DNA of 64,000 bases, from NCBI GenBank assembly GCA_964350735.1, contig CAYGKO010000001.1, positions 115,339 to 179,338 on the forward strand. Direction: 5' to 3'. The DNA is from an uncultured Candidatus Saccharibacteria bacterium (GTDB lineage Bacteria; Patescibacteriota; Minisyncoccia; Phycocordibacterales; UBA918). This document shows, piece after piece, positions 2,878-60,726 of the stretch. A program made the translations under genes and the position numbers. Below the pieces are notes generated by a model. That model saw only the letters and a list, made by a program, of their open reading frames with translations, ran no database searches and was not told the DNA's origin. Within the stretch, counting starts at the first letter, position 1; each line of letters begins with the position of its first letter.

Positions 2878-3381
2878 CTAGAATCCAAATATTTCCAGTA
2901 TTTTATTAACTACCGGTTCTTCTATATGTTCTTCAGGCAATCGCAGTTCGAGTATATCTTCAATCTCTTCGACATACTCTTCTGGTAGAGGCATGATAAT
3001 AAGCGGCCCAAATAGTTTTTGTGATCGAGCGAGTAAGTGTGGACCCAACTCATGATCTTCATCAATATAAAATGCTTCCAGTGCGCTGTATGGATACAGC
3101 TGGTCGTTCACCCGCAAGCCTCGAGTTGAGACAGCATAAGGTATCACTTGAGGTTCGCGGTTTGCTACCAGAGCAATTGCCCCTGCCCCAATAATTATCA
3201 AAATCGCTAGAAGAAAGTTACCAAAGAAAAACGCCGTTGCTGCGGCTGCAAACGCTAGAATACCAAGCACCCAAAACCAATCACTGTTTTTTTCAACGTG
3301 ATGATGTTCTAACGCTTCCCAAGTAACTGCACGAGCTGCTTCTACCATTGTCGCTATTGTATCACGGGCTTTGATGTACAT
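2878..3381 (-). CDS. Hypothetical small membrane protein (one long hydrophobic segment, acidic C-terminus)
   Basis: ORF trimmed to the internal ATG at 3379-3381, because the longer ORF-track version reads through tRNA-Ser on the opposite strand; stop sits next to the hairpin at 2833-2874. Confidence 0.4.
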   Translation of the reverse strand: MYIKARDTIATMVEAARAVTWEALEHHHVEKNSDWFWVLGILAFAAAATAFFFGNFLLAILIIIGAGAIALVANREPQVIPYAVSTRGLRVNDQLYPYSALEAFYIDEDHELGPHLLARSQKLFGPLIIMPLPEEYVEEIEDILELRLPEEHIEEPVVNKILEIFGF

Positions 3382-3424
3382 TTGGGCTTGAATCTGGTAG
3401 TATCTCTGCCACAATTGAATATTT

Positions 3425-3509
3425 GGAGGGATGCCAGAGTGGTCGAATGGACTTGTCTTGAAAACAAGCGTGCGGCAACGTACCGAGGGTTCGAATCCCT
3501 CTCCCTCCG
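3425..3509 (+). tRNA. tRNA-Ser (anticodon UGA), long variable arm
   Basis: GGAGGGA acceptor, D-arm TGCCAGAGTGGTCGAATGG, anticodon stem-loop CTTGT-CTTGAAA-ACAAG, variable arm GCGTGCGGCAACGTACC, T-arm GAGGG-TTCGAAT-CCCTC; 85 nt. Confidence 0.85.
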
Positions 3510-3516
3510 CAACTGC

Positions 3517-3542
3517 AAAATAGCGCCTTTTGGCGCTATTTT
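3517..3542 (+). terminator. Intrinsic terminator after tRNA-Ser
   Basis: aaaatagcgcc-tttt-ggcgctatttt followed by a T-run. Confidence 0.6.
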
Positions 3543-3548
3543 GTTTGT

Positions 3549-3682
3549 GGAGGGAGAGTAAAGCGTGGGACGCTTTACGTAGGGATTCGAAGCTGTTGCC
3601 AGATATTTTTGGAGGCACGGCCGAACAAAAATATCGACAACGGATACTGGTTGTGTAGCAACCGAAATTCCCTCTCCCTCCG
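3549..3682 (+). ncRNA. tRNA-Ser-derived, scrambled tRNA-like element (pseudo-tRNA or structured RNA)
   Basis: Shares GGAGGGA at the 5' end and the 3' 14-mer TCCCTCTCCCTCCG with the adjacent tRNA-Ser, plus AGGGATTCGAA and TGCCAGA fragments, but there is no D-arm and an 8-bp hairpin GTAAAGCG/CGCTTTAC instead. Confidence 0.35.
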
Positions 3683-3683
3683 A

Positions 3684-3724
3684 AAAAGTAAAAGTCGCGC
3701 CCATGGGCGCGGCTTTTACTTTTG
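3684..3724 (+). terminator. Intrinsic terminator (GC-rich hairpin gtcgcgccc-atg-ggcgcggc flanked by A/T runs)
   Basis: aaaagtaaaagtcgcgcccatgggcgcggcttttacttttg. Confidence 0.6.
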
Positions 3725-3740
3725 TAGATACTCAAGAAGC

Positions 3741-3784: not shown

Positions 3785-4051
3785 CTAGTTCTTAGCTTTC
3801 ACAACAGCGGCTGCAATTCGAGACTTCTTTCGAGCAGCAGTGTTTTCTTTGATGATCCCACGCTTCGCTGCTTTGTCGATTGCTTTGTGTACGGTTGGCA
3901 TCATTTCTTCTGCCTCCTTGACGTCACCTTTAGTAATCAAATCTCGTACTTTCTTTACCACTTCGTTCATTGTTCGGTTACGTCGTACGTTAAATACACG
4001 CTTTCGTAGCGATGCTCGGTGGGCTTTTTGTGCTCCTTTAGTGATTGGCAT
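3785..4051 (-). CDS. rpsT: 30S ribosomal protein S20
   Basis: 88 aa, highly basic, KGAQKAHRASLRKRV...AARKKSRIAA pattern of S20. Confidence 0.9.
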   Translation of the reverse strand: MPITKGAQKAHRASLRKRVFNVRRNRTMNEVVKKVRDLITKGDVKEAEEMMPTVHKAIDKAAKRGIIKENTAARKKSRIAAAVVKAKN

Positions 4052-8128: not shown

Positions 8129-8201
8129 CCGCCCTTAGCTCAGTTGGTAGAGCAGCTCCCTTTTAAGGAGATGGTCCCAGGTTCGAGCCCTGGAGGGCGG
8201 A
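8129..8201 (+). tRNA. tRNA-Lys (anticodon UUU)
   Basis: CCGCCCT/AGGGCGG acceptor (C1-G72), D-arm GCTCAGTTGGTAGAGC, anticodon loop CUUUUAA, T-arm CCAGG-TTCGAGC-CCTGG. Confidence 0.8.
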
Positions 8202-8251
8202 CAAATGAAAAGACCGGCTTAGCCGGTCTTTTCATTTGTCCGCCCTCCAGG
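8189..8251 (+). terminator. Perfect 30-bp-arm palindrome (terminator-like) whose left arm contains the last 13 nt of tRNA-Lys
   Basis: cctggagggcggacaaatgaaaagaccggc-tta-gccggtcttttcatttgtccgccctccagg. Confidence 0.7.
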
Positions 8252-8650
8252 TGCAGGATTTGTGCATACAAATCCGTTGCATGGCTCGAAAAGCTTTTGT
8301 GGTATTTTAGGAACGTAGTGAACTAAAATATCCAAAAGGTATACTGTTCATGTAATGGAAGAGTCCACATTATTTTAAATAAAAAATGAGATTGTCCCAG
8401 TGGGGCAATCTCATCGTGTTCAATTCAACGAGGACGTTGACAATTTGAACATGTCTTCTGGCCCTCGCTGTTACTGCTGAAAGTGCAGTGACTGCACCTC
8501 CAGCAACCCGAAGGTGGCGTTGGGTTTGTTTTAGGTTCGGATTTTTGACCAGATCCTGGCATAGAATTTCTTTCTTTGGAACAGGGAGAATAATATTATA
8601 ACATACAATTGCTTTTTTAGCAAGTATTACACTTATGCTACAGTACCCTC

Positions 8651-9382
8651 ATGCTCCCCCCTTCCCTAACCCACGCCATCTCAACCGCCACCGACGGCAA
8701 TATGGGCCTGCGTTTTGGTACTGAAGCAGAAGTCACTCTAAACAGAAAGACGTGGCTTACGAAGCAAAATATTGACCCCAACCAAGTCTGCTTAATGGAC
8801 GTTGCTCACGAAGCCGACATCTTCGATGTGACTAAAGAAAACTTTGAACCCAATATGCGACCCGTCTGTGACGTCCTCGTGATTCAAGAACCAAACCTTG
8901 CCCTGATGCTCCTCACTGCCGACTGCCTGCCGGTCACTATCTACGATCCGGTCACCACCACCATCGCCCTTGGTCACTTTAACCGGCACAATATTCCCTT
9001 TGAAATCGCTAAGAAGACTATCACTCATTTAGTAGAACACTACGGCAGCAACCCAGCGGACCTACTCATTCACATTGGTCCCTGCATCAGCGCAGATTCA
9101 TACCGCTTCCCCCTCCCACTTCAACAAGAACCCCCACCTGCCACAAAGCCGTACGTAAAAATTAAAGATAACCACGCTCATGTCGACGTCACCCGCGCGC
9201 ATGTCGATGCACTACTTGAAGTTGGCGTGCCAGAAAAACAAATCACCCTCCCCACCATCGACACTGCCACTCACCCCAACTACTACTCCCACTTCGCCAC
9301 CAAACAACTCGAAACCAAACCAGACGGCCGCTTTGCAACGGTCGTGCTACGAAAAATCCTACAGGATCAACACCCCATCTAA
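8651..9382 (+). CDS. YfiH/PgeF (DUF152, laccase-domain) family protein
   Basis: LTADCLPV and ALGHFNRHN blocks resemble the conserved Cys/His motifs of PgeF/YfiH; 243 aa. Confidence 0.5.
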   Translation: MLPPSLTHAISTATDGNMGLRFGTEAEVTLNRKTWLTKQNIDPNQVCLMDVAHEADIFDVTKENFEPNMRPVCDVLVIQEPNLALMLLTADCLPVTIYDPVTTTIALGHFNRHNIPFEIAKKTITHLVEHYGSNPADLLIHIGPCISADSYRFPLPLQQEPPPATKPYVKIKDNHAHVDVTRAHVDALLEVGVPEKQITLPTIDTATHPNYYSHFATKQLETKPDGRFATVVLRKILQDQHPI

Positions 9383-9987
9383 ACCTCCACACACGGTGCA
9401 ATTCTTTCGATAGTGTGAATACCAAGTCGCTCAAGTTCTGCAGCGAAGGCCTCAGAAATGAAGAAGCCTTTGGCGACTACCTGACCAATATCCAGCCAAA
9501 CATGACGCCGCCCTACTCGGCTCTTCTTAACATGGAATTCCAATTCAGGAATCTGACTGTAATTGAAACAATATCGACCGTCTTCTAGAAAACTGTGTTC
9601 CACATGATTTCCCGAACCAAAGACAATGGCATCTACGGGTCCAACTAGATTCATAAAATAATATTCATCGATCACTGGGCCGGTCTTCGATTTACGCAGT
9701 GATACTGGATGGAAGATGGTTGGTGTAGGCTCCCATTTTTCAACTAGTGTCCGGAGCTCCTTTGACACGATAGGGATGCCGTCGCAGGCCATGGTTAAAT
9801 GTGAGAGTACTTTTCGTGGCTTACGAAGATAAAGCTCATTTGGCAGACATCCTAATTCTAAGGGAACCCCAGCTCGCGCGCTGTCAGAGTATTTCACAAT
9901 TTCTGCACTCGTACGTGAATCGTCGGGCATTCGTGAAAGAGGGACAGAACCTGATCCTGAGTATGCCCCACTAACAAACCAAGCCAT
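9379..9987 (-). CDS. Hypothetical protein
   Basis: 202 aa, no recognisable motif. Confidence 0.4.
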   Translation of the reverse strand: MAWFVSGAYSGSGSVPLSRMPDDSRTSAEIVKYSDSARAGVPLELGCLPNELYLRKPRKVLSHLTMACDGIPIVSKELRTLVEKWEPTPTIFHPVSLRKSKTGPVIDEYYFMNLVGPVDAIVFGSGNHVEHSFLEDGRYCFNYSQIPELEFHVKKSRVGRRHVWLDIGQVVAKGFFISEAFAAELERLGIHTIERIAPCVEV

Positions 9988-10104: not shown

Positions 10105-10806
10105 TTACAATTTCAACAACCACCGCTCCAATCCTTCATTAATATCAACCACTCCCCCATGACCATCGTGATAGAGCGTAAGGAGGGAGAGTGAGAGTGA
10201 TTCTAGTTCGCCGTCTTTGAAGGTACTGAGTGCGCGTTTGGCTTTGTTGTAGGGGAAATCTTTCATACCAGCTTCACTGGCTGAACTGGTAAGTTTGGCG
10301 AGCCGGAGTGACTTGAGTTGCCACCATAGAATACCAATCAGTTCCTCAGCACTTTGCCCAGCTGCGACCGCCTCTTGGTAGATCAGCCAGAGGGATTTTT
10401 TATCTTTCTTGGCGAGTGCGTCAGCAATGGCGAAGCTGTTGAAACGCTCCCCGGCAGCTGCTTTATACTCGGTCATCTCAGCCGCGTGTTTGGCCCACTG
10501 CTTTTTAGCCGCTGCTAGTAGGGCCCCTTCGATCACCACGAACTGGGTACTCGAAGTCGCAAGCACTTCAAGGACATCTATACATTCAGTATTAAAATCA
10601 GCACTACTACTTGGAGTATCAATCAGATAGACTGTCTCTCCACCAAAGAGCGATGTCGCTCCCGCTGCATCGCGGAGCATGCCGGACTGCCAAGTGTCGC
10701 TGTCAATTAGTTCCACTGTCGCCCCCTTATCTTCGAGCGGCTCTACAAAAGTAAAAGCAGCTTGTCGAACTTTGATGGTGTCGTTGCCGTAAAAAACCTG
10801 TAACAT
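10105..10806 (-). CDS. holA: DNA polymerase III delta subunit-like (HolA)
   Basis: Size and pattern (VYLIDTPSS..., C-terminal helical GILWWQLKSLRLAK) are consistent with HolA; moderate. Confidence 0.5.
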   Translation of the reverse strand: MLQVFYGNDTIKVRQAAFTFVEPLEDKGATVELIDSDTWQSGMLRDAAGATSLFGGETVYLIDTPSSSADFNTECIDVLEVLATSSTQFVVIEGALLAAAKKQWAKHAAEMTEYKAAAGERFNSFAIADALAKKDKKSLWLIYQEAVAAGQSAEELIGILWWQLKSLRLAKLTSSASEAGMKDFPYNKAKRALSTFKDGELESLSLSLLTLYHDGHGGVVDINEGLERWLLKL

Positions 10807-23361: not shown

Positions 23362-24455
23362 TACTTATTCATTGGCATCACAAGATATCGAAGTGACTTA
23401 TCATTCACTCCTTCCATCACCATTGGGCGTCCGATACCAGCCATATGTAATACGATACTATCGTCACTAATATGACTTAAAGGTTCTGATACATACCGCT
23501 GATTGAAACTTAAAGTGAGTTCATCACCTTCAGTACTTGCTCGTACGGATTCGGTAGTTGTTCCAACCTCACCACTATTAGCTGAGACTGTGATTGAGTC
23601 TTTTGTGACATGCACACCAACTTGAAAGAATTTATTTAAAAAGATATTCGTCTTCTTAAATGCGTGACTAAGATCATTTTTAACCAACGTTGAATGGGTG
23701 ACGTATTCTTTTGGAATAATCTGCTCATAATCCGGAAATGAGCCTGTGGTAAGACGTGAGGTTATGTATACCCCATCAGAAAATTCTAAAGAAAACTGAT
23801 TTTCATTAACTCGACAAACTGGGTCAGTATCTTTCATATCACAAACCCTCGATAATTCGACAGCATTCTTTTGTGGTAGTAATATTGACTCTTCAAAAAT
23901 AACTCCTTTTTGCGGCACTGTTTTCTCCATCAAACGAAACGAGTCTGTTGTAACAAAAGTAAGGCTTTGTTCTTTCTTTTGAAACACATAAATACTTCCA
24001 AGCTCTGGTTTAATTGAAGATTGTGAAGCAGCAAAGGCTGTTGTTTTTATACCTAGAGAGAATAAATTATTATTTATCACTTGTCCTTCGGTTGTAAGTC
24101 TCGGGATAGTTGGAAACTCTTCATGTGGAATACTTTTAAGCGTGGTTTCAGAACCAGTCCCTTCAACTACTAGCGAATTATCTTCAACTTTTAAGGTAAC
24201 TTCTTTTTGAGTATGAAGATTTATTATTTGAATCAAGGTACTAGCCGGAACGGCAACACAACCAGTCTCAACAATAGTTGCTTTGATTTCAGTTTCAATC
24301 CCTATTTCAAGATTTGTTGCTTTAAGTACACACGTCCCTTTATTCACTTCAAATACCACACATTGAAGAACTGGGAGTGTTACATGTTTTGTACTAACTC
24401 TTCCAACGAGATCTAATTTTTCTTTTAACTCCAAAGTATCAACCGTAATGTGCAT
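23361..24455 (-). CDS. dnaN: DNA polymerase III beta sliding clamp
   Basis: 364 aa, three-domain clamp pattern, position downstream of dnaA. Confidence 0.85.
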   Translation of the reverse strand: MHITVDTLELKEKLDLVGRVSTKHVTLPVLQCVVFEVNKGTCVLKATNLEIGIETEIKATIVETGCVAVPASTLIQIINLHTQKEVTLKVEDNSLVVEGTGSETTLKSIPHEEFPTIPRLTTEGQVINNNLFSLGIKTTAFAASQSSIKPELGSIYVFQKKEQSLTFVTTDSFRLMEKTVPQKGVIFEESILLPQKNAVELSRVCDMKDTDPVCRVNENQFSLEFSDGVYITSRLTTGSFPDYEQIIPKEYVTHSTLVKNDLSHAFKKTNIFLNKFFQVGVHVTKDSITVSANSGEVGTTTESVRASTEGDELTLSFNQRYVSEPLSHISDDSIVLHMAGIGRPMVMEGVNDKSLRYLVMPMNK

Positions 24456-24791
24456 AGCTGTGCATTAATTTTTTATTTAAAACTATTATACGCTGTATTA
24501 TTAGCCCTGTGGATCTGTGTATATCTCAAATCTATGGCCTACTACATAGCTATATTTTAAGCCTTATTTTTGGTAACTACTCGAACTACTAATCCAAAAC
24601 TGTTGATTGTCTGTGTATAAGTGAGGTGGTTTTCTGTTTCTGGGGATAAGGTAGGTAGTTTTCCTCAGGGACGCAGTAGTTGTTGTAATTGTTTTAATAA
24701 ACTTGTCCCGACTGTACGCAGTACTTACTCAAGTTTTATACCCACATAGTAGTGGATAAGAAAAATGCTGACTTGTAAGTCAGCATTTTTC
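24456..24791. promoter_or_regulatory. Candidate oriC: AT-rich dnaA-dnaN spacer with DnaA-box-like 9-mers
   Basis: TGTGGATCT (24508), TGTGTATAT (24516), TGTGTATAA (24612), TGGGGATAA (24641), AGTGGATAA (24751), against the consensus TGTGGATAA. Confidence 0.45.
24761..24790 (-). terminator. Hairpin with flanking A/T runs directly after the dnaA stop
   Basis: aaaaatgctgacttgtaagtcagcattttt. Confidence 0.55.
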
Positions 24792-26207
24792 TTATTTGAG
24801 TAGGAGTCTAATTTGCGTAATTTCTTCTTCGAGCTCGTTGTTATCTTTAAGGTCATTTTTTACCTTTTCACATGAGTGAATTACAGTTGTATGATCACGA
24901 CCCCCCATTTTTTGTCCAATGGCTGGGTATGAGACTTGGAAATCTTCACGCAAGATATACATAATGAGCTGGCGAGGCTTCACTACCTCTTTACGACGAG
25001 TTTTTTCGTAGATTGATGACGGATCAATGTCGAAGTAGCGAGCGACTTTATCTACGACATCAGAAACAGCGAGGGTTTTCCGAGGCCGGGTGCTATTTTT
25101 GATGATCTGTTTTACCTCATCAAGTGAAAGGGTCCGCCCAAGTAGTTGTGACTGACACATAATAGTGTTTAAAGCTCCTTCTAATTCTCGGATGTTCCCT
25201 TCAATGGTGTGCGCAAGATGTTCGACCACATCGTCACTAAGTGAAATACTATTTTGAGCTGCTTTAGCTTTAAGGATTGCTGCTCGCGATTCGAGATCTG
25301 GCGCTGGGATATCAACAATCATCCCTTGAGCGAAGCGCGACTGTAGTCGTTCTTCCATTCCATTAAGTAACGCTGGGTGGATGTCACTTGAAAATACAAT
25401 TTGTTTGTTTGTGTCGTGTAGAGCATTAAACAGGTGAAATAATTCCTCCTGCGTCTTCTCTTTGTTAGTTAAAAACTGGACATCATCCATGATAAGAGCA
25501 TCATATTGACGGTACTTGTCTTTGAAGCTATTGGCGGTTCCGTTTTGTAGAGAGTTGAAATAATCAACAGTAAACCGCTCACTCGTGACATAAAATACTT
25601 TTTTACCCTGTCGCTTCAGGTGATTGCCTACTGCCTGGATGAGGTGGGTTTTACCATGGCCGGTTTTACCGTAGATAAACAATGGATTATAAGTGATACC
25701 TGGTTTTTCACTCACTGTTTTTGCTGCAGTATGAGCTAAAGCATTAAAAGGTCCGATTACAAACGTGTCAAAAATATACTTCGGGTTAAGGTTGTCACTC
25801 TTATTGATGTAATACTCCTCTAGGGGTAGGGCTGCGTTTACGGTTTGTTGTTTTGTTTCTTGCCGCTTGTCATTTCGTTGTACGACAGCGTACTCAATGC
25901 TTCGCACGTGTGGAGTGAGGTCCCGCAGGGTTTTAAGGATGAGTGACTGGAATTTATCCGAAAGCCAATCTCGGACAAATACACTCGGGACACCGATAGT
26001 GATAGTTCCGTCTTCAAGCGAAACAATGTGGGTATCTTTAAACCAAGTTTTGAAATTGGCGGGAGTAATTGAAAGTTCGACAGAGACTAAAGCATCATCC
26101 CACAGCTTTTTTACATCAACTTGTTCAGTTTCAATGATGCTATTACGAGACGAAGAGTGTGTAGTGGGATTCATACCAATCAAACAGACGTTTAAGGTAA
26201 GAAGCAT
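24792..26207 (-). CDS. dnaA: Chromosomal replication initiator DnaA
   Basis: GKTGHGKTHL Walker A, AAA+ box, C-terminal HTH (HTTVIHSCEKV); alternative start at 26174. Confidence 0.9.
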   Translation of the reverse strand: MLLTLNVCLIGMNPTTHSSSRNSIIETEQVDVKKLWDDALVSVELSITPANFKTWFKDTHIVSLEDGTITIGVPSVFVRDWLSDKFQSLILKTLRDLTPHVRSIEYAVVQRNDKRQETKQQTVNAALPLEEYYINKSDNLNPKYIFDTFVIGPFNALAHTAAKTVSEKPGITYNPLFIYGKTGHGKTHLIQAVGNHLKRQGKKVFYVTSERFTVDYFNSLQNGTANSFKDKYRQYDALIMDDVQFLTNKEKTQEELFHLFNALHDTNKQIVFSSDIHPALLNGMEERLQSRFAQGMIVDIPAPDLESRAAILKAKAAQNSISLSDDVVEHLAHTIEGNIRELEGALNTIMCQSQLLGRTLSLDEVKQIIKNSTRPRKTLAVSDVVDKVARYFDIDPSSIYEKTRRKEVVKPRQLIMYILREDFQVSYPAIGQKMGGRDHTTVIHSCEKVKNDLKDNNELEEEITQIRLLLK

Positions 26208-26932: not shown

Positions 26933-27670
26933 ATGTTTAGTTATATTTGGCACACGTTTTTCTTCGACCCAGTGTACAACGGTCTAGTTTTCTTCATTGA
27001 TATTATTCCTGGCGGCGATATTGGTTTAGCCATCATCGCGATTACAGTAGTGGTGAAGTTGCTCTTACTCCCTCTCTCAGTGAAAGCGGCCAAGACGCAG
27101 GTGATTATGCGCGAGTTGGAGCCAAAGCTTAAAGAGATCAAAGAGAAGTTTAAAGATAAGCGTGAAGAACAAGCGCGAGCGATGATGGATCTGTATAAAG
27201 AAGCTGGACTGAATCCGTTTGCCAGTATCCTTCTAATTTTGATTCAGTTGCCAATTATTTTTGCCCTCTACTTTTCAGTTTATAGTGGTGGTGGTGTAGC
27301 GTTGCCTGAAATCAACACGGCTCTTTTATATAGTTTTATTCCCACTCCTGAGTTTGTCAGTATGATCTTCTTAGGAACGATTGATATAGCAGCTAAAAGC
27401 TGGCCCCTTGCCCTCTTAGCTGGAGTCACGCAGTTTATTCAATCACACCTAGCTATTCCTAAACCTACTCCTCGTGAACCAGGGGCTGAGCCAAGTCTTA
27501 AAGATGACTTTGCGCGTAGTATGCAGCTCCAAATGCGCTATGTAATGCCTGTGTTGATTGGTTTTGTAGCGTACTACATCTCAGCCGCCATCGCTCTATA
27601 TTTTGTAGTCAGTAATATCGTTGCTATCGCTCAAGAGCTGTACGTTCGAAAGTACAAGAGACAGAATTAA
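26933..27670 (+). CDS. yidC: Membrane protein insertase YidC (short Oxa1-like form)
   Basis: 245 aa; the conserved YidC helices and synteny after rnpA. Confidence 0.8.
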   Translation: MFSYIWHTFFFDPVYNGLVFFIDIIPGGDIGLAIIAITVVVKLLLLPLSVKAAKTQVIMRELEPKLKEIKEKFKDKREEQARAMMDLYKEAGLNPFASILLILIQLPIIFALYFSVYSGGGVALPEINTALLYSFIPTPEFVSMIFLGTIDIAAKSWPLALLAGVTQFIQSHLAIPKPTPREPGAEPSLKDDFARSMQLQMRYVMPVLIGFVAYYISAAIALYFVVSNIVAIAQELYVRKYKRQN

Positions 27671-28512
27671 GGTTTTACACAAACATATTCTGTTAGAGAA
27701 CCGACGGTCATTTCTCTTATTTCATTACCGGTTTCAGTTGCAAGTGTGGCACCTTCACATTCGTCATACCAAATATCTATAATTTCATTCTTCTCATCAA
27801 TTGATCGGCCTTCAAATTCACTAACATTAAATCTTTTAACTACTGATTTAAACTCACCAGCCTCAATTCTTTTTTGCTCTTCTTCAGCAATCACTTCACG
27901 CTCTTCTTTTGTTTTAGATAGGGTTCCAAAACTACTATCGATACACTCATATCCACTGGGAATACTGGGGTTTTTGGTATAAGTTTGATTGCAGCCACAT
28001 ACACCACCTGCTTTGGATTGGTCACAGGCTGCGTCTCGTTCTGCCCTGAATTCTATCCCCACCTCCCCCCGCGCATTAAACACACAGCCCGGCTTTGGGT
28101 TATTAGGGTCTGAAGAATCCTTCGGGCTACATATCTCTTCTAAGGCTGTAAAGTCTGTCAGCTTTGGATTAATGGTCTCTAAAATTAACACTGCTCCCAG
28201 CACAATCAGTAACCCTAACAACGCACCTTGAATTTGCTTCTTAGCCGCTCCTTTATCAGTTACCACGTCACTCAACATGTACTGAACACCAGCTAAAATG
28301 ATTCGGACTACCGCTAAGAACGCAGCGACTGAGATAGATAGAATGTAGAGTGCGTTGATGTAGCCAGCGGTAGAGAGATTGTTGGGATCGAGGCCGGGGA
28401 TGCCGACGAGTTGCACAAACCCCTCAGCCAAAACAAAATTTGGTAGGAGTAATAAAAAATTAATGAGGATTATTTTAGGAACCAATGAGATCATATTGCC
28501 AAAGTGTGCCAT
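27667..28512 (-). CDS. VirB2/TrbC-topology pilin-like protein A with Cys-rich C-terminal extension
   Basis: Signal peptide, two TM helices (ALYILSISVAAFLAVVRIILAG / ALLGLLIVLGAVLIL) separated by a short basic loop, then about 140 aa with 8 Cys; the core is 100% identical to paralogue B. Confidence 0.45.
   Translation of the reverse strand: MAHFGNMISLVPKIILINFLLLLPNFVLAEGFVQLVGIPGLDPNNLSTAGYINALYILSISVAAFLAVVRIILAGVQYMLSDVVTDKGAAKKQIQGALLGLLIVLGAVLILETINPKLTDFTALEEICSPKDSSDPNNPKPGCVFNARGEVGIEFRAERDAACDQSKAGGVCGCNQTYTKNPSIPSGYECIDSSFGTLSKTKEEREVIAEEEQKRIEAGEFKSVVKRFNVSEFEGRSIDEKNEIIDIWYDECEGATLATETGNEIREMTVGSLTEYVCVKP
28067..28411. repeat. 345-bp perfect direct repeat, copy 1 (inside pilin A)
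   Basis: Identical base for base to 30057-30401, checked line by line. Confidence 0.9.
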
Positions 28513-29641
28513 CAATTTTATTTACAAAATATAATACCCCACCCTCTTCATTCATCTGAGTAACATCAATCGGTCGATTAGAGGTGCTAAAAAGATCAAT
28601 TTTTAAGGTAGATATTCCAGTTACTAAGTTAGTTTCCCAAATAATATCTTGTGAGTTTCTATTTCCTTTATACCAATTTTCGATATAGTCCGGAGTAAGC
28701 TGTTCGGATGGTGATGCACACCATAGTGTACTGCCAATTGCGTCGCATTTTTCCGGCAGAGGTACTATCGCTAATTCAATTAAGTCAGGAAATATTTGAG
28801 CACGAGCGACTCCATATAATACTTCACCATCAGTTTCTGTAGTGATGAAATGGTCGCTGGTTGGAAACCCAACAAAACCAAAACTACTTGGAGTGACTGC
28901 TTCGAGGCTATTATTAGTTGCTTTGTATAAACTTCCTTCTAATAACTCACTCGACTTTGGATGCACAAAAACTTCTGACCCACTTTGGTAGATAATCACA
29001 TCTTGTAAACTCAGGCTCTGACTTTGGTTTTGTTCGAGCGTCTCACCATTAAAGGTAAATAACCCACTCCCCGTAGTAGTATTGGTTGAGTAACTAATCG
29101 TATTATCCCCAACAGATATATTCTCTATATTAATTGGTAGTGATCGACCAACAACAGAACCACTGCTGCCAGAGATTTCTATCCTTCCGAAAAATGTTTC
29201 ACGGATATATCCAGATTCGGATACTAAGGCCACGTATTCACCGCTGGTTGAAAAATAGGCTTCAGTGACTCGAGGAATAGTGGTGCCTGAGATTCGTCTC
29301 TCTTCCCCAGAGTCTAGGTTAATTTCGTAAATATGCCCAGTTCCATTCTCTGCGTATCGCACAAATAAAGAGGAAGTGCTTGAAACCACAGTGAAGCCTG
29401 CTACCGGCCGGAGCGTTAGTTGGCGGAGCGCTTCGCCAGAAACATCAATTAATACATCAGGATCTGGATTAACAGGATCAATCAAAATTGGATTTTCTGG
29501 TTGCTCTGTAATATCAAAACCAAAGTTTGAGAAGATACTCGTCCCAGTCTCATCAGTGTTAAAGAACATTAAGTATGCCCATAGCCCTAGTACTAGGAAT
29601 ATTACGACTATTCCAGCGATAATAAAAAGAGGTTTTTTCAC
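28475..29641 (-). CDS. N-terminally anchored beta-propeller-like protein (TolB/PD40-like repeats), T4SS-cluster member
   Basis: GTG start, TM anchor MKKPLFIIAGIVVIFLVLGLWAYL, then repeated beta-strand-rich blocks; sits between the two pilin paralogues. Confidence 0.4.
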   Translation of the reverse strand: MKKPLFIIAGIVVIFLVLGLWAYLMFFNTDETGTSIFSNFGFDITEQPENPILIDPVNPDPDVLIDVSGEALRQLTLRPVAGFTVVSSTSSLFVRYAENGTGHIYEINLDSGEERRISGTTIPRVTEAYFSTSGEYVALVSESGYIRETFFGRIEISGSSGSVVGRSLPINIENISVGDNTISYSTNTTTGSGLFTFNGETLEQNQSQSLSLQDVIIYQSGSEVFVHPKSSELLEGSLYKATNNSLEAVTPSSFGFVGFPTSDHFITTETDGEVLYGVARAQIFPDLIELAIVPLPEKCDAIGSTLWCASPSEQLTPDYIENWYKGNRNSQDIIWETNLVTGISTLKIDLFSTSNRPIDVTQMNEEGGVLYFVNKIDGTLWQYDLIGS

Positions 29642-29698
29642 GTATATAGTATACCAAGCTAGTTAACGGTAGTTTTGTATCATTCGGGATAGGTATTG

Positions 29699-30490
29699 CT
29701 ATGGTTGACTGCACTGAAATCCAGTGACGATTCCCTCTGCGTTCCTAACTTGTTTAGCACCATGACAACCGGTAGGCCTACCCGGGTTACCAGGTTGTCT
29801 GTCTTTAAATGTGCAACCACAAACTCGCTCAGCATAGTCAGCCTGCTTTTCTAGCACATTTTTTAATACCTCCCCTTGAACATCTGCTCCTTGAGAGCCG
29901 TTTAGTGCCGCCTCTTCTTCTTCAGTTAATTCAATAGTTTCAAAATCTTCATCAATCTCTATATTTTGTTCACGCAATCTCTGTGCCTCAGTTTTACTTA
30001 CAGAGCAAGCCCCATCTTCACCAGTAGCAGCACAAAATGATATAACCTCTACTCCTCCCCGCGCATTAAACACACAGCCCGGCTTTGGGTTATTAGGGTC
30101 TGAAGAATCCTTCGGGCTACATATCTCTTCTAAGGCTGTAAAGTCTGTCAGCTTTGGATTAATGGTCTCTAAAATTAACACTGCTCCCAGCACAATCAGT
30201 AACCCTAACAACGCACCTTGAATTTGCTTCTTAGCCGCTCCTTTATCAGTTACCACGTCACTCAACATGTACTGAACACCAGCTAAAATGATTCGGACTA
30301 CCGCTAAGAACGCAGCGACTGAGATAGATAGAATGTAGAGTGCGTTGATGTAGCCAGCGGTAGAGAGATTGTTGGGATCGAGGCCGGGGATGCCGACGAG
30401 TGGTTTATATGAATTGATAGTTTCTTGTCCAAATGTAGCTAGGGGTAAAAAGAATAAAATAAGTAGTAGCAGTAAACGCAAATTGAACAT
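29699..30490 (-). CDS. VirB2/TrbC-topology pilin-like protein B with divergent Cys-rich C-terminal domain
   Basis: Different signal peptide and C-terminal domain; the central 115 aa are identical to pilin A. Confidence 0.45.
   Translation of the reverse strand: MFNLRLLLLLILFFLPLATFGQETINSYKPLVGIPGLDPNNLSTAGYINALYILSISVAAFLAVVRIILAGVQYMLSDVVTDKGAAKKQIQGALLGLLIVLGAVLILETINPKLTDFTALEEICSPKDSSDPNNPKPGCVFNARGGVEVISFCAATGEDGACSVSKTEAQRLREQNIEIDEDFETIELTEEEEAALNGSQGADVQGEVLKNVLEKQADYAERVCGCTFKDRQPGNPGRPTGCHGAKQVRNAEGIVTGFQCSQP
30057..30401. repeat. 345-bp perfect direct repeat, copy 2 (inside pilin B)
   Basis: Identical to 28067-28411; offset 1990 bp. Confidence 0.9.
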
Positions 30491-30491
30491 A

Positions 30492-31448
30492 TTAAAAACG
30501 CAGTGTGAAGTTATTTTGAACCCCTTGTAGTAATTGGGTTAAGTTACGAATATGGAATTCAATTTTGAAATTGCCGTTTCCTCCACCATTTTGTAGAGTG
30601 ATAGTTTGTTGATCTTCGTTGGGGTTTTGAATCACTGATCCATTAATTGACCACTCCAGTAATGGGTTGCTTTCAAATATTGATTCATCCATGTAGTACG
30701 GCTCAGCTCGAACATCAACTTCTGGGCCAACCAAGCTGTAGACAGTGGGTACAGAAATCCGGGAGATCCCGCGCAGTGGGTTGTCGGGATAAAAATATAA
30801 TTCTGGCTGCACAGCTGGAATGACGAGGCTGTCGCTCGCAATTACTTCTCCTGTTTGAGTGAGTACATCAACTCCTAATATAGCGTCTCTACCCATCGGC
30901 ATCTGGAATTCTGCTACATGTTTACCTTTAATAGAACCTCCAAATAATACCTTGTTGTTTAAACGCCACACGTATGAGTAGTTTTTAGGGTCGGTACCGT
31001 TAATCTGCGGTAGGGCTACAGCTCGAACAGTACTGTCGGTAGAAGGTAGGGCACGACCTTTGTAGAAACTCGGTGTGAGAGTTTTTGCTTCGATAATTAT
31101 GTCTAGGCGCTGCGGTTGTAGAGTATACGTAACAGGAATAATACGGCCAACACGAGTGGTGATTTCTGCCATTATTTTATTTATTGACCCAGCCACTGGT
31201 GCCACTAGCTCAATAGTTCGATTATTAGCAGCTGGCAATAATTCTTCATCGTCAACAAACCACTTGATACTTCCACCGCTAGTATCGATAGTATAGGCAT
31301 TGAGTGACAGTTCGACAATTTCGCCTGGTTCAGGAAAACGCGGGTCAGCAATAATTGAAATATTTGTCTCGCCAGTCAATGTTTGGGCTGAACCAAAACA
31401 TGGGAATACTAATAATAACAATATAAAAATAGATCGGAATCGATACAT
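30492..31448 (-). CDS. Secreted protein of unknown function (signal peptide), T4SS-cluster member
   Basis: MYRFRSIFILLLLVFPCFGSAQT signal peptide; 318 aa. Confidence 0.4.
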   Translation of the reverse strand: MYRFRSIFILLLLVFPCFGSAQTLTGETNISIIADPRFPEPGEIVELSLNAYTIDTSGGSIKWFVDDEELLPAANNRTIELVAPVAGSINKIMAEITTRVGRIIPVTYTLQPQRLDIIIEAKTLTPSFYKGRALPSTDSTVRAVALPQINGTDPKNYSYVWRLNNKVLFGGSIKGKHVAEFQMPMGRDAILGVDVLTQTGEVIASDSLVIPAVQPELYFYPDNPLRGISRISVPTVYSLVGPEVDVRAEPYYMDESIFESNPLLEWSINGSVIQNPNEDQQTITLQNGGGNGNFKIEFHIRNLTQLLQGVQNNFTLRF

Positions 31449-31479
31449 ACTACAAGAATACCATGGGTAAATGCTGCTA

Positions 31480-32193
31480 TTACCTCGTGATGTAGGTAGC
31501 GCCAGCCCAGATAGTAGCCCACGGGAGCATTCCTCCCGAAAGAGGGGCTATAGATAGCGCTAGTAAAATTATAAAAGTGTAGGTACTCATAAAAGTTAGA
31601 AGCTTAATTTTATTCATTACGAGATAAGAAGAACACATACTAAATATCGCGATCAGAGAACTGATAAGCCATCCAACAGCGAAGAAGATATATCCAAAGG
31701 TGGCAGGATCAATAAATAAATCAAGGAAAGGAATATATTCAGTAAGAGTAGTGCCAAAAGCAGCCAGTGCCGCGCCAAATAAACTCATAACCCAAAAAGA
31801 TAAACCTAACTGCCAGCCAAGGAAAGTGATTGGTATAACAATTCGGCCTACAAATAATCTTCTCGCTACACCTCTGGCGAGACGAATCATTATATTTTGT
31901 TTTTCTGATCCCCGCGCCACTTGAGTAAACGAGTTTTGTTGATTTGGCTGTAATAGCCAGTCGTTTACATCATCATGAGATTTTTTTGCTAGTTTTTTTG
32001 TTGAGAGCGTGCGGGCTCCATATTGGACGTGATTGAATTGGCTGCTGATGTCACGCTTATCTAGATTGTCAGCCAACATTTTTGAGCGCAAGCTCATGTT
32101 TTTTCGAACAGCTGCCCGGCCTATCTTTTTAACTTTTTTAACAGCCTTGGATCCAACTACTTGTGCTGTTTCCACAATAAGAGGTGCAGCCAT
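31480..32193 (-). CDS. Membrane protein (basic N-terminal region, about 4 C-terminal TM helices), T4SS-cluster member
   Basis: 237 aa; sits directly downstream of virB4. Confidence 0.4.
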   Translation of the reverse strand: MAAPLIVETAQVVGSKAVKKVKKIGRAAVRKNMSLRSKMLADNLDKRDISSQFNHVQYGARTLSTKKLAKKSHDDVNDWLLQPNQQNSFTQVARGSEKQNIMIRLARGVARRLFVGRIVIPITFLGWQLGLSFWVMSLFGAALAAFGTTLTEYIPFLDLFIDPATFGYIFFAVGWLISSLIAIFSMCSSYLVMNKIKLLTFMSTYTFIILLALSIAPLSGGMLPWATIWAGATYITR

Positions 32194-32196
32194 ATA

Positions 32197-34008
32197 TTAT
32201 TGTTGTGCTGCTTGGAGTTCCTCGCGGGCCTTTTTGATTTGTAAAATCTGAGACGGGTCAGAAGTGATGATTTGGTCCTCGGTGTAACTGGCGATTACTT
32301 TGATAGCGACGTGTTTAAGACCAGCAAAGAAGATCCCCTCTCCGACCCCTGATTCGAGCAAGAGTAGTTTTTCTTCGTCAGTGAGATTGAAGGTATTTTG
32401 AATGTTGTCGATCGCGGTCGGCGATTGCTTCATAAGAAGTTGTAGTGATGAGTTGGTGATCATTGGGACTCCATACGGTGAGCGCAAGAAGTCATCGACA
32501 TCTTGAGTGATGGTTGAGAGACCAAGATAATATTTTCGCCCTCGCTTTGCTAACATAAATAAGAAAGAGGCTGTGTCTTCACTTTTCATCATCCACCATG
32601 CCTCGTCAATTACCAATAAGCGCTTAGTCAGACGTCGTCTGATAGCACTCCAAATATGATTAGTGATTATGTACATCGCCACTGTTTTAAGTTCGTCTTC
32701 CATGTCTCGAAGGCTGAACACTACAAACTTTTGGTTTACGTCGACATTGGTTGCTTTGTTCATGAAGCCCGACCACGTACCAGAAGTGTACTTTTGTAGT
32801 CGAGAGATTAATGAAGAGCTCCCTTCCATTCCGGCCAATACCATCTCAAAATCAGTTAACAGTGGAGGTTCAAGATCAGCAAAGTTACTGTCACCAGTGA
32901 TGTCTTTAAGGGCGTAGGTTTCTCGGAGAGCAGTATCAACAATGGTTTCTTCTTCTGGTGATAGTCCCCCGAGCATTAGGCGGAATAGACCGATGAGTTC
33001 GATGATGTGTGAGCGTAATACATCATCAGGATTTTCATCTGGTTGCGGGGCTGGCAAATCAAACGGATTGATATGATGCGAGGAAGAAAGTGAAATATTA
33101 AAGAATCGGCCACCAGTAGATTCTGCCAGGTATTCATATTCACGCTCCGGATCAATCACGATCACTTCAGTTCCAAACATCAGTGAACGAAGAATTTCAA
33201 GTTTAGTTGTGTATGACTTCCCGGCTCCAGAAGTCGCAAAAGTTACCGAGTTGTAGTTAGTGAGTTGGTAACGATCAAAAAGAACGAGACTCGAGTTGTG
33301 ACGATTAATGCCGTACAAAATACCGGTGTCTGAAGTCAGGTCAAATGAAGTGAAGGGAAAGAAACTAGAAAGCGGTGAAGAATTGAATTTGCTGTGCACC
33401 AATAGCTCGTCAGTCATAGTCGGAATGATACTCTTCATTCCTTGCTCTTGTTGGAAAAGCGCTGGCTTTAGATACACCAAGCGTGAGTCGAGCATTCCTT
33501 TTAATTCAGCTTCGGTCTTATTTAATTCAGCTTCGTCTTCACTATGAATAGCGATATAGAGACCGACATTAAATAATTTTTCCTCGGCTTGTTGGAGTTT
33601 ATCCCGCAGATCTTCCAAGTTTCGGTAGGCTGCTTCAAGTTGTGGGTCACGGACCATCCCCCGTTCGGCATTGGTATTGATCTGGCTTTGTACCTCAGCT
33701 ACTTTTTTCTGAAATTTCTTTAACGTATCAGCCGTATCAATGGGGTGAATCACGATTGAGACATCCATTTCACGTTCTAGATTAAGGATGGGTTCGAGCC
33801 AGCCATCATTCAGGTAACGAGGATATGAAATGGCAAAAAATACTCGTGAAAGCGTCCCGCTAATATTAATACTGCGGGGATTTATATTTACGGCTGAAGG
33901 GGCAATAACATCTTCAAGCGTCATTAGGGCGTTGTCACCAATATCTACGGTGTCATCAGGGTTGGTAGATGCTGGTTTCTTTGGTTGTAAAAAATCTAAG
34001 AAAGCCAT
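32197..34008 (-). CDS. virB4: VirB4/TrbE/CagE-family T4SS ATPase, ATPase (C-terminal) portion
   Basis: Walker A TSGAGKSYTT, Walker B LLVIDEAWWMM, conserved GLSTITQDVDDF motif; 603 aa. Confidence 0.8.
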   Translation of the reverse strand: MAFLDFLQPKKPASTNPDDTVDIGDNALMTLEDVIAPSAVNINPRSINISGTLSRVFFAISYPRYLNDGWLEPILNLEREMDVSIVIHPIDTADTLKKFQKKVAEVQSQINTNAERGMVRDPQLEAAYRNLEDLRDKLQQAEEKLFNVGLYIAIHSEDEAELNKTEAELKGMLDSRLVYLKPALFQQEQGMKSIIPTMTDELLVHSKFNSSPLSSFFPFTSFDLTSDTGILYGINRHNSSLVLFDRYQLTNYNSVTFATSGAGKSYTTKLEILRSLMFGTEVIVIDPEREYEYLAESTGGRFFNISLSSSHHINPFDLPAPQPDENPDDVLRSHIIELIGLFRLMLGGLSPEEETIVDTALRETYALKDITGDSNFADLEPPLLTDFEMVLAGMEGSSSLISRLQKYTSGTWSGFMNKATNVDVNQKFVVFSLRDMEDELKTVAMYIITNHIWSAIRRRLTKRLLVIDEAWWMMKSEDTASFLFMLAKRGRKYYLGLSTITQDVDDFLRSPYGVPMITNSSLQLLMKQSPTAIDNIQNTFNLTDEEKLLLLESGVGEGIFFAGLKHVAIKVIASYTEDQIITSDPSQILQIKKAREELQAAQQ

Positions 34009-34010
34009 AT

Positions 34011-34652
34011 TTATTGGTTGGGGGCGTTACCTGCAATATCGCCGGGATTGAAGATATGATAGTAGAGTTCAACTAATTCTTCGTTTTGTAAGGCGACAGT
34101 TTTAACACCAACTCGGTTGAGTCCTTGTTCGACGACAGTGACTCGTTGTTCTAGCTGAGTACGATGCTCTGCAAATGACTGATCTTCAATCACTACATTT
34201 TTCTTGGCCCCAAATAGGCTGCTAATATTGGACTTGAGATTGATATCAACTGGTGTATACGGAATTACTACAAAGAAGTTCTTGGTCATGATATCAACTT
34301 CGCTAGTGAATGTTTTCACAAACTGCATATACTCTCGGAGCTGAATCTTCATGAGGTCGTTATATTGATCATCTTCTCGGGCTGCTAACAGTCCAAGATA
34401 CGGCTTGATGTCTAGTCGTCGTGACTGCACGTAAATCTGTAATGAAAAATCAATGGTGTTTAAAAATGATTGAAACTGTCGCAAAATAGAAGCTTGTTCA
34501 TCAAGAGACTTAAGGGCAAAGTTGATAGAAGAGGCTAAGAGCACCATGTTCATCTGTCCGTTTTTTAAGACCACCACCCCATCACGAATATCTTGCACGG
34601 GGACAAACTGTTGGGTGGAAGCTTGATTTTGAGTTTTTGTTTTTGCAGGCAT
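34011..34652 (-). CDS. VirB4 N-terminal domain encoded as a separate ORF (split or frameshifted virB4)
   Basis: FVPVQDIRDGVVVLKNGQMNMVLLASSINFALKSLDEQASILRQFQSFL matches the N-terminal module of Gram-positive/CPR VirB4 homologues; TAA-AT-ATG junction with the next ORF. Confidence 0.5.
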   Translation of the reverse strand: MPAKTKTQNQASTQQFVPVQDIRDGVVVLKNGQMNMVLLASSINFALKSLDEQASILRQFQSFLNTIDFSLQIYVQSRRLDIKPYLGLLAAREDDQYNDLMKIQLREYMQFVKTFTSEVDIMTKNFFVVIPYTPVDINLKSNISSLFGAKKNVVIEDQSFAEHRTQLEQRVTVVEQGLNRVGVKTVALQNEELVELYYHIFNPGDIAGNAPNQ

Positions 34653-34653
34653 A

Positions 34654-35082
34654 TTATTTTTCTTGTTGCAGGGCTTGCAGTTCTAACTTGCGAGATAGCG
34701 AGTGGATATTACTACCTGACGTTGGTGGAACGTACGAAGCGATTGGAGTATTTCCAGTGTCTTCATTGTTGTAGAGGACGTCGGTTTTTTTTCGCCATAA
34801 GTATAAACGACTAGTACTGAAGTATTGTAAGGCGGCTTCTAAGAAGACTGAAAATGGGCGGTTATTGACTGGGTAAAACGCCAACAGAAACGCTAGGCCA
34901 GCGATTGGTAGTCCTAGTAAAACAAATACGATGAAATTAGTGGTCAAAAATAGTACTACCGCGATACCAGCCCCACCCATTAGGTAGACGAATTGCTTCC
35001 AAGTGAATGGACCAAAAATCTTATCCTCAATTTCAATAAATTGTGGTACCTCAAATCGCATAATCGTACCACTATTATACAT
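34654..35082 (-). CDS. VirB3-like small membrane protein
   Basis: Small membrane protein with a hairpin-like TM pair immediately upstream of virB4, as for VirB3/PrgI/ConD analogues; start uncertain (35112, 35082 or 35061). Confidence 0.35.
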   Translation of the reverse strand: MYNSGTIMRFEVPQFIEIEDKIFGPFTWKQFVYLMGGAGIAVVLFLTTNFIVFVLLGLPIAGLAFLLAFYPVNNRPFSVFLEAALQYFSTSRLYLWRKKTDVLYNNEDTGNTPIASYVPPTSGSNIHSLSRKLELQALQQEK

Positions 35083-35086
35083 GGCT

Positions 35087-35119
35087 AACGCGGGTGGAAG
35101 CTTTGCTTCCACCCGCGTT
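35087..35119 (-). other. Perfect 15-bp-stem hairpin inside the operon, between the acidic protein gene and the VirB3-like gene
   Basis: aacgcgggtggaagc-ttt-gcttccacccgcgtt, no T-run. Confidence 0.5.
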
Positions 35120-35124
35120 ATCCC

Positions 35125-35670
35125 CTACTCTTCTCCTTCAGTATACGACGGGGGTTTCGCCAGTCGGTCTTTTTGCAAAGCATCAGTTTGAGTACTGCTG
35201 TGCACCACCTCAGTCTCTGCTTCGTAGGCGGCATTAGCTTGTTTCAAAGCTCCATAACCGTGCACTTTTTTCATATCGTCTGACATGGTGCGGAGTGGTG
35301 TAATTCCAATTTCATCACTAGGGTTTGCAGTTCTGATAGTCGCTTTTTTATTGTTATTTTCTTCAGTTAGAAGAGGTTCAGATTCTATTCTGATCCCAGC
35401 TACATCTACTGATAGAGGAATTTTTATTAATTTTTCTAAAAATTCCTCCAGGTCATTTATTACCGATTTCTCAAGATTAATTTCATCAAAAGCAGATGAA
35501 TCACTGATACCTAAGACCCTGTCTGTGATAGTGTTTGTTATATCTATCCTAGAGTCTTGTGGTATCGCATGTTTTTCTAAAAATTCACTTATTTTATTGC
35601 TGTCAATAAAGTCTTGCACCGCTTGCGGGGCGTTTTGATAAGCCTTTGAAAATGTGTTCCAGTCTGACAT
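35125..35670 (-). CDS. Acidic soluble protein of unknown function, T4SS-cluster member
   Basis: 181 aa, no TM helix. Confidence 0.4.
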   Translation of the reverse strand: MSDWNTFSKAYQNAPQAVQDFIDSNKISEFLEKHAIPQDSRIDITNTITDRVLGISDSSAFDEINLEKSVINDLEEFLEKLIKIPLSVDVAGIRIESEPLLTEENNNKKATIRTANPSDEIGITPLRTMSDDMKKVHGYGALKQANAAYEAETEVVHSSTQTDALQKDRLAKPPSYTEGEE

Positions 35671-35680
35671 AGTTAATTAT

Positions 35681-37762: not shown

Positions 37763-37763
37763 A

Positions 37764-60675: not shown

Positions 60676-60705
60676 GTCGCAAATTACGGAGTAATTTTGC
60701 GACGC
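60676..60705. promoter_or_regulatory. 30-bp palindrome directly upstream of the recombinase gene (candidate recombination core site or operator)
   Basis: cgtcgcaaatt-acggag-taattttgcgacg: roughly 11-bp inverted arms around a 6-8 bp centre. Confidence 0.3.
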
Positions 60706-60726
60706 TTCCCTGCTACAATACTGGTA

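Follow-up and report, generated by a model that had tools for sequence, protein, structure and literature searches.

Directly downstream of an intact tRNA-Ser(UGA) gene, the window (the whole 64-kb stretch of DNA that was analysed) carries a 134-nt element at positions 3549-3682 that is made in part of the sequence of the adjacent tRNA gene. The locus raises the question whether such an element is a damaged or rearranged tRNA gene, an RNA derived from one, or a unit of another kind. The preliminary description pointed to a 5' heptamer and an exact 3' 14-mer in common with tRNA-Ser, and both are seen directly: the element starts with GGAGGGAGAG, of which the first bases are GGAGGGA, and ends with TCCCTCTCCCTCCG. 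This 14-mer occurs exactly twice in the 64 kb, once as the tRNA-Ser 3' end (3496-3509) and once at 3669-3682, and shuffled sequences give 0.2 matches even when 2 mismatches are permitted. The element is predicted to fold with -59.9 kcal/mol (z = -6.1 compared to shuffles), and it is, as described previously, a discrete structured unit, built partly from tRNA-Ser sequence and equipped with its own terminator. In the reading that we consider the best, and to which we give an even chance, it is an accessory, non-coding hairpin cassette, acting at the level of DNA, that has entered the 3' end of the tRNA-Ser gene by recombination. On this best reading, it belongs to a family that has settled at the ends of tRNA genes in some Paceibacteria/Kaiserbacteria-like CPR bacteria.

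The gene order at the locus is tRNA-Ser(UGA), a terminator-type hairpin (T1), the 134-nt element, a second terminator-type hairpin (T2), rpsT (3785-4051, opposite strand) and ruvA. All parts of the cassette are on the plus strand. The anchor gene is the tRNA (3425-3509; called by ARAGORN, 58.9 bits with the Rfam tRNA model), and its last 14-20 bases are the template of both cassette arms. T1 (3517-3542, with a T-rich tail to 3548) consists of AAAATAGCGCC/GGCGCTATTTT, has a predicted energy of -20.8 kcal/mol, and has homologues at two loci of relatives (L039 and L013). It is followed by the first part of an inverted arm, GGAGGGAGAG (3549-3558), which is the reverse complement of CTCTCCCTCC at the tRNA-Ser 3' end and forms the 5' strand of stem P1. 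The 3' end of tRNA-Ser, whose reverse complement is CGGAGGGAGAGGGATTCGAA, makes up a long quasi-palindrome together with T1 and the inverted arm. The arm is interrupted by H1 (3559-3577), the 8-bp hairpin noted before, with strands TAAAGCGT/ACGCTTTA and a GGG loop, which leaves the arm near the acceptor/T-stem boundary in the predicted fold; many other copies have an H1 with a GGG loop and different stems. The second part of the inverted arm, AGGGATTCGAA (3581-3591), is the 5' strand of P2. This piece had been called T-arm-like, and it is present, but as the reverse complement of the T-loop and T-stem 3' strand (TTCGAATCCCT) and not as a direct copy, and it stops exactly at the complement of T54.

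The middle of the element is occupied by two hairpins. P3 (3593-3643) has a lower stem of 6-8 bp, an upper stem of 10 bp and an apical mini stem-loop flanked by GGAG and CGAAC; both sides change in 17 of its 18 pairs across copies. The heptamer TGCCAGA, to which a likeness with the D-arm had been attributed, is found at 3597-3603 but belongs to the P3 stem, and the likeness is coincidental, because the same stem reads GGTTGCC beside the Arg and Lys tRNAs, whose D-arms differ. P4 (3649-3663), seen both in the fold and with a covariance model, is a short hairpin with the conserved loop TGTAG/TGTAA (a GTA triloop). It precedes the direct arm, GAAATTCCCTCTCCCTCCG (3664-3682), which provides the 3' strands of P2 and P1 and comprises a T-loop remnant, the T-stem 3' strand, the acceptor 3' strand and the discriminator G of tRNA-Ser, including the exact 14-mer repeat. 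The element thus runs from GGAGGGAGAG through H1 (8 bp, GGG loop) and AGGGATTCGAA to the direct copy GAAATTCCCTCTCCCTCCG, and tRNA-derived sequence is confined to its two arms, which copy tRNA positions 54-73 once in inverted and once in direct orientation. In the predicted fold, these copies pair with each other as P1 (9-10 bp) and P2 (7 bp), with G3682 as an unpaired discriminator. The cassette ends with T2 (3687-3723, -28.0 kcal/mol), a strong hairpin followed by a T-run, in agreement with the strong terminator reported earlier; T2 also gives a terminator-like prediction on the minus strand.

A 285-aa ORF (2878-3735, minus strand) crosses both tRNA-Ser and the element. The real gene underneath is 156 aa long (2878-3348, minus strand) and has an ortholog in L059, and the 285-aa ORF, already called spurious in the preliminary description, is an extension of it.

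Three homologous cassettes are present in the window, one directly 3' of each tRNA gene (Arg, Ser and Lys). A covariance model (R1), built on the core P2-P3-P4, matches at 2745-2825, 3582-3671 (85.5 bits, the core of the tRNA-Ser cassette) and 8281-8368, and finds no copies away from the three tRNAs in the 64 kb. The cassette behind tRNA-Arg (2598-2670) extends over 2676-2872 on the plus strand (76.1 bits), with T1 at 2676-2706, the inverted arm GTGCTCTCGC at 2710-2719, H1 at 2720-2741, the inverted T-arm at 2742-2754, the core at 2745-2825, the direct arm TCCTGGCGAGAGCAC at 2822-2836 and T2 at 2837-2872; its arms read GTGCTCTCGC, H1 and GTCAGGAGTCGAA, then TCCTGGCGAGAGCAC. Behind tRNA-Lys (8129-8202), the cassette spans 8188-8414, also on the plus strand (86.2 bits), and starts with a perfect 64-nt palindrome of tRNA 3' end, T1 and inverted arm (8188-8251), followed by H1 (8252-8281), an inverted T-loop (8283-8290), the core (8281-8368) and a terminal hairpin (8381-8414). 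The arms of this copy read GTCCGCCCTCCAGG, H1 and GGCTCGAA, and its direct arm is decayed.

In each case the arms follow the neighbouring tRNA. Exact matches to the 3' end of the neighbour amount to 13-22 nt for direct and 10-16 nt for inverted arms, compared to a mean of 6 nt for non-neighbour tRNAs, and the T-loop variants of the tRNAs (GGAGTCGAA, GGCTCGAA and GGGATTCGAA) are mirrored in the arms. Without exception, the inverted arm stops at the complement of T54. The palindrome formed by tRNA end, T1 and inverted arm is perfect not only in the 64-nt Lys block of the window, but also over 27 bp in L024. The tRNA-Lys genes of the window and L059 differ by a compensatory change in the T-stem that has been copied into the inverted arm, and the ~30-bp Lys palindrome, perfect in the window, contains one T-G wobble in L059. 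As the palindrome takes in the genomic spacer between tRNA and T1, and not CCA, the arms must have been copied from DNA or the primary transcript and not from mature tRNA. The direct repeat likewise extends beyond the tRNA end into the spacer, by 18 nt in L033 and by 4 nt in L019. We list an apparent duplication of the arms at the DNA level as support for the cassette reading. Elsewhere in the window, at 10181-10194 (minus strand) and ~2 kb from tRNA-Lys, a GGAGGGAGAG/TCACTCTCCCTCCT-like sequence has 2 mismatches to the tRNA-Ser end, which may be due to chance.

The comparison used 56 RuvA-anchored loci from relatives, and L059 and L068 were scanned additionally. The RuvA relatives of the window are all MAGs of the Paceibacteria/Kaiserbacteria type within the Patescibacteria (CPR). 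Searching the 56 loci with the element (nhmmer) identified homologues beside Arg, Lys and Ser tRNAs, and R1 yielded 26 matches at E < 1e-3 in the window and these first 56 loci, with further copies in L059 and L068. The association with tRNA genes is strict: for 24 of 30 core matches an intact tRNA is found no more than 300 nt away, on the same strand in nearly all cases, against a chance expectation of ~6% (P about 1e-24), and several of the remaining core matches adjoin tRNA fragments. Within element-bearing loci, 16 of the 20 tRNAs have a copy beside them, and tandem arrays occur in L024, L008, L025 and L033. The general layout is tRNA, T1, an inverted arm interrupted by H1, a variable core, a direct arm and T2. 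Copies of a second type ('type B'), without the T-arm part and P2, are located upstream of tRNAs in duplicated tRNA 5' fragments (L059, L033 and L021). The distribution among relatives is patchy; R1 has no match in L001-L003, the loci with the most similar RuvA among the 56 (65-67% identity), and L001 shows the palindrome and inverted-arm frame behind tRNA-Lys. A scan of viral contigs with the core pattern gave one match, by chance, and blastn against phage and plasmid collections gave no cassette match.

The core is under structural constraint. In an alignment fitted to the model, which somewhat inflates the figures but leaves the compensation plain by eye, 90% of cells are paired compared to 34-54% (about 45%) in slid-partner controls, both sides change in 26 of 29 pairs, and no shuffle attains any of the covariation measures. 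The orthologous Lys copies in the window and in L059 (RuvA 90% identical) likewise differ by compensatory changes, in the form of two double changes. Conserved features of the core include the junctions TCGAA(R) and RTACWG, the P4 loop TGTAA/G, the H1 loop GGG, and a P3 apex with a mini-hairpin between GGAG and CGAAC, often GCGAAGC. A covarying fold in related genomes, suggested as a check at the outset, was thus found with the covariance model at RuvA-anchored loci, and the presence of homologous covarying cores behind several tRNA types indicates that the middle of the element is not derived from tRNA-Ser.

Several observations bear on the insertion and exchange of such cassettes. Empty sites, with a terminator only, are present at tRNA-Ser in L068 and at tRNA-Arg in L003, and the L003 terminator is homologous to T1 of the window. 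In L059, tRNA-Arg is followed by DNA unrelated to that of the window and then by a terminator, at the T2 position, that aligns with T2 of the window. Other cores are found in the same frame of arms in L007, L038 and L039. In L059, the closest relative, tRNA-Ser is followed by the start of such an alternative core and then by an AT-rich 233-aa ORF (L059:8840-9541, plus strand), which holds the place of P3-P4 of the window and has no Pfam or PADLOC match; it is flanked on the left by GGAGGGAGAG, H1 and AGGGATTCGAAAG, and on the right by a decayed arm. Cores do not group by tRNA type, as identity reaches 81-82% among the Arg core of the window, the Ser core of L004 and the Lys core of L008, and the three cores within the window are much less alike. 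The T1/H1 modules as well as the tRNA-Ser bodies are spread over the genomes in a pattern that conflicts with RuvA relatedness.

The 177 nt between tRNA-Arg and the shared T2-type terminator of L059 (L059:5989-6165) are GC-richer and apparently self-complementary, without a match in Rfam. The tRNA-Ser(UGA) genes of the window (3425-3509) and L059 (8512-8599) differ in D-arm, anticodon stem and variable arm despite the 90% RuvA identity; the body of the former resembles that of L004, and the latter that of L039. This suggests that the tRNA-Ser gene itself may have been replaced by recombination, and the shuffling of tRNA-Ser bodies and terminators among close relatives suggests that tRNA loci could be recombination hot spots in this lineage.

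How might such a cassette move and keep its arms? On a single strand, the inverted and direct copies pair into a stem that restores the tRNA gene's acceptor/T-stem duplex and bears the core at its end. The joint for recombination would be the repeated segment from the tRNA 3' end, comparable to the attL/attR of elements that integrate in tRNA genes, and recombination at this joint, either site-specific or homologous after DNA uptake, would insert, swap and delete cassettes. The folded stem itself may be the recognised site, as for integron attC or CTX-phage attP, and intrastrand template switching across the palindromes could keep the arms in register with the strongly selected tRNA. It is tempting to go further and see a new kind of recombination cassette in CPR, in which a single-strand-fold attachment site rebuilds the adjoining tRNA 3' end, the arms are re-templated, and cores or genes are carried as cargo; we offer this extension, a tRNA-targeted analogue of integron attC or CTX attP, as a speculation that is more probably wrong than right. 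No recombinase, transposase or reverse transcriptase was found beside any copy, and the 40 window ORFs that were scanned include no reverse transcriptase, transposase or integron integrase; the lone Xer-like tyrosine recombinase among them (60670-61641) is 57 kb from the element. We saw no within-species insertion polymorphism or excised form, and L070, identified via the neighbouring 156-aa gene, has the same arrangement; an exact-protein look-up with S20 gave no record.

The properties of the hairpins are relevant to the choice between DNA and RNA. Stems are almost entirely Watson-Crick, and G-T outnumbers A-C (32 vs 19) without significant asymmetry, the mild excess pointing to the tRNA-sense strand. 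Triloops are the conserved type of loop, with GTA and, inside GCGAAGC, GAA. The sequence GCGAAGC is a classic hyper-stable DNA mini-hairpin. For tRNA-Lys with T1 and the inverted arm, the predicted fold unzips the acceptor and T stems of the tRNA (-78.8 vs -31.7 kcal/mol), and at the Ser locus an interleaved fold (-159.2 kcal/mol) is predicted to be more stable than the sum of the modules (-142.0 kcal/mol). With near-pure Watson-Crick stems, triloops and a tRNA that is predicted to be unzipped on transcription, the hairpins look like DNA hairpins. Nevertheless, there is no established mechanism that supplies target-derived arms in both orientations, and the covariation, conserved loops and junctions, co-orientation and terminator per unit are also expected of a functional RNA.

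A tRNA-derived regulatory RNA, one of the possibilities raised in the preliminary description, survives as a rival, but only the two arms derive from the tRNA. In this alternative, the main one, which we regard as possible though somewhat unlikely, a small RNA co-transcribed with the tRNA is carried on a tRNA-like minihelix, and the core P3-P4 is the functional part. P1 and P2 would mimic the acceptor/T-stem with a discriminator, H1 would stand in for tRNA nucleotides 8-48, and processing by RNase P, RNase Z and the CCA-adding enzyme would be predicted. Consistent with this, the predicted fold has stacked acceptor and T-stem with a discriminator, H1 branches off at a distance of 0-5 nt to the acceptor/T-stem boundary, the point at which nucleotides 8-48 emerge in a real tRNA, and the apex of P3 has a tandem-GA-like internal loop. 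Covariation is strong and loop and junction sequences are conserved across genomes in which RuvA is only 50-60% identical, and the two compensatory double changes between window and L059 orthologs, the nearly constant orientation along the tRNA strand, the terminator behind each unit and the excess of G-U over A-C (32 vs 19) fit an RNA equally. Moreover, L019, the Lys copy of L008 and L033 lack T1, so that there the element must be within the tRNA transcript. In the window, however, each tRNA is separated from its cassette by a terminator, with no promoter-like site in the interval, and the predicted folds indicate that the tRNA would be misfolded on read-through. An RNA mimic would not require arms that are exactly identical to the neighbouring tRNA, spacer bases included, and no minihelix can form in the many copies in which one arm is missing (the Lys copies of window and L059, the Arg copy of L021) or in 'type B' copies, which have no P2. 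In addition, the inverted T-loop does not form a T-loop motif, because its first base varies, the cargo is variable and includes an ORF, and the stems are nearly all Watson-Crick. Viral 3' tRNA-like structures, mascRNA-type RNase P substrates and engineered 'tRNA scaffolds' are the group for comparison: they likewise display a cargo structure on a terminal stem of acceptor and T-stem with the right discriminator, but the cassette has no intact T-loop, D-loop or anticodon arm, many members of the family lack one arm, and both its processing and its expression are predictions.

The arrangement could also be a functionless by-product of template switching during replication at terminator hairpins (snap-back or tandem-inversion-duplication), followed by decay, which we consider improbable. 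Such quasi-palindrome rearrangements occur in bacteria, as known from Salmonella and E. coli. This process could leave behind what is seen here: tRNA 3' segments in direct-inverted-direct order whose junctions are centred on hairpins, palindromes that run perfectly through T1, and partial and decayed arms at many loci. It does not explain, however, why a homologous covarying core and an H1 with GGG loop are found at different tRNAs and in different genomes, nor why the Lys cassette is conserved between window and L059 amid diverging flanks.

Weakest are the other options raised in the preliminary description, in which a tandem copy of tRNA-Ser has decayed (pseudo-tRNA), or a tRNA is permuted or split by an intron: despite the common 5' heptamer and 3' 14-mer they are highly improbable and effectively refuted, because the middle 75 nt are homologous to cores beside Arg, Lys and Gly tRNAs and unlike tRNA-Ser, with compensatory pair changes, found in many genomes behind tRNAs for Arg, Lys, Gly and Ser, that speak against decay, because the 5' arm goes on as the T-stem complement (GAG) and not as tRNA nucleotides 8-10, and because the absence of a cloverleaf and of an Rfam match excludes a permuted or intron-split tRNA. 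Searches in relaxed mode, as had been advised, and in intron mode were run with ARAGORN and the Rfam models and gave no cloverleaf in 3549-3682. There was no ARAGORN call and no Rfam tRNA match, either at the gathering score or at E up to 10, and the sole call of either at the Ser locus is 3425-3509. Allowing introns of 0-3000 nt, or of 0-150 nt with the threshold lowered to 80%, gave only junk Pro calls at other positions than the element, one of which partly overlaps its 5' end, and there is no anticodon arm. The tmRNA search (ARAGORN -m, relaxed threshold) and the mitochondrial mode were likewise empty.

Among 4227 Rfam models, none matched the element at the gathering score, and the weak chance matches were driven by tRNA or palindromes. 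A self-cleaving ribozyme or a C/D or H/ACA guide was rejected in view of the absence of Rfam matches and of conserved box motifs, and a retron, bridge RNA or omega-RNA in view of the absence of an adjoining RT, IS110 or TnpB/IscB gene. A reverse-transcribed copy of mature tRNA, with an arm like a primer-binding site, does not apply either, as the inverted arm runs into the complement of the genomic trailer and not CCA, and no reverse transcriptase is encoded among the 40 scanned ORFs.

The cassette reading finds its nearest terms of comparison among mobile elements. As in integrative elements of tRNA genes, the insert is flanked at both junctions by directly repeated tRNA 3' sequence, which starts in the T-loop and stops at the tRNA end or shortly after it, with 14 nt exact here and 13-22 nt at other loci, some reaching into the spacer; the tRNA remains intact, the cargo is variable, and occupied and empty sites coexist among relatives. 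In contrast to these elements, the cassette is only ~130-190 bp long, no integrase is located in or beside the insert, which is without an ORF, an inverted tRNA copy and a conserved structured core are added, and one core family is found at several different tRNAs. With integron attC and CTX-phage attP(+), the cassette shares an imperfect palindrome whose halves pair on one strand into a duplex site, a structure that is kept while the sequence varies, a variable tip, an asymmetric extra-helical feature (H1) and the occurrence in arrays. Yet the R''/L''...L'/R' boxes (RYYYAAC...GTTRRRY) are absent, no IntI is present among the scanned ORFs, the stem consists of adjoining tRNA sequence, and recombination of the cassette is putative; identity with attC was rejected.

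REP/BIME sequences and bacterial MITEs are, like the cassettes, short, non-coding, hairpin-forming, multi-copy and intergenic, often beside terminators and sometimes in tandem. A GTA(G/A) motif, as in REP/BIME, is present, but in the P4 loop and not at the foot of a hairpin, and no RAYT transposase was seen among the scanned ORFs of the window. The MITE explanation fails as the inverted termini are not constant, but change from one tRNA to the next and are identical to the tRNA sequence, the three window copies are only partly alike and divergent with compensatory changes instead of near-identical, the association with tRNAs is strict, and no transposase partner was found among the 40 scanned ORFs. 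In minimal mobile elements of naturally transformable bacteria, as here, different cassettes occupy one site between conserved sequences without a dedicated recombinase, and in our case the flanking tRNA body has apparently been exchanged too; the differences are that one flank of the cassette is only a tRNA-end repeat of 14-22 nt, and that the fold is elaborate and conserved. Limited searching of full-text literature yielded no paper describing the cassette family, nor is there a curated Rfam family, and folded non-coding cassettes behind CPR tRNA genes are apparently undescribed.

CPR genomes are tiny, and little is known of their mobile DNA and non-coding RNA. If the cassette reading is true, tRNA genes would be used in a new way as safe havens, by an element that copies the neighbouring tRNA in both orientations; alternatively, the elements would be a new class of tRNA-linked RNA, and natural 'tRNA-scaffold' small RNAs matured by tRNA-processing enzymes would be equally novel. 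The cassettes also matter for annotation, as gene callers run ORFs through them (the 285-aa ORF, and the 233-aa call in L059 as a candidate), and the tRNA ends that they duplicate can pass for pseudo-tRNAs or for att sites of prophages.

Additional modules were observed at the relatives' loci. A nested insertion of ~70-75 nt, with an apparent TA(A) duplication, is located in the TA of the P4 loop (TGTAAG|...|TAA) at L024:8340-8420, L021:7650-7720 (minus strand), L021:3510-3570 and L025:7250-7380. Its inverted repeats are CTTGAAC/GTTCAAG or CTAAAAC/GTTTTAG, and it looks like a putative IS630/mariner-type miniature element inside the cassettes. Another module that recurs behind tRNAs consists of T1, a hairpin with a CTGC, CAGT or CTGT loop, and 9-12 nt of inverted tRNA end plus the first spacer bases, which closes a three-way junction; further conserved hairpins follow. 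It was seen at L008:3139-3300, L039:1078-860 (minus strand), L021:3205-3400 and, in L023, downstream of tRNA-Lys.

Some other features of the window deserve mention. The dnaN and dnaA genes lie within 23364-26207, beside the minimum of the cumulative GC skew, and this is likely the origin region. A block of ORFs without Pfam matches (27670-37831) surrounds a TraG-like P-loop ATPase (32200-34008) and may be a conjugation or type-IV-secretion-like island. Finally, the window encodes an Imm11-family immunity protein (9382-9987, minus strand) and an NYN-domain nuclease (56643-57278, minus strand).
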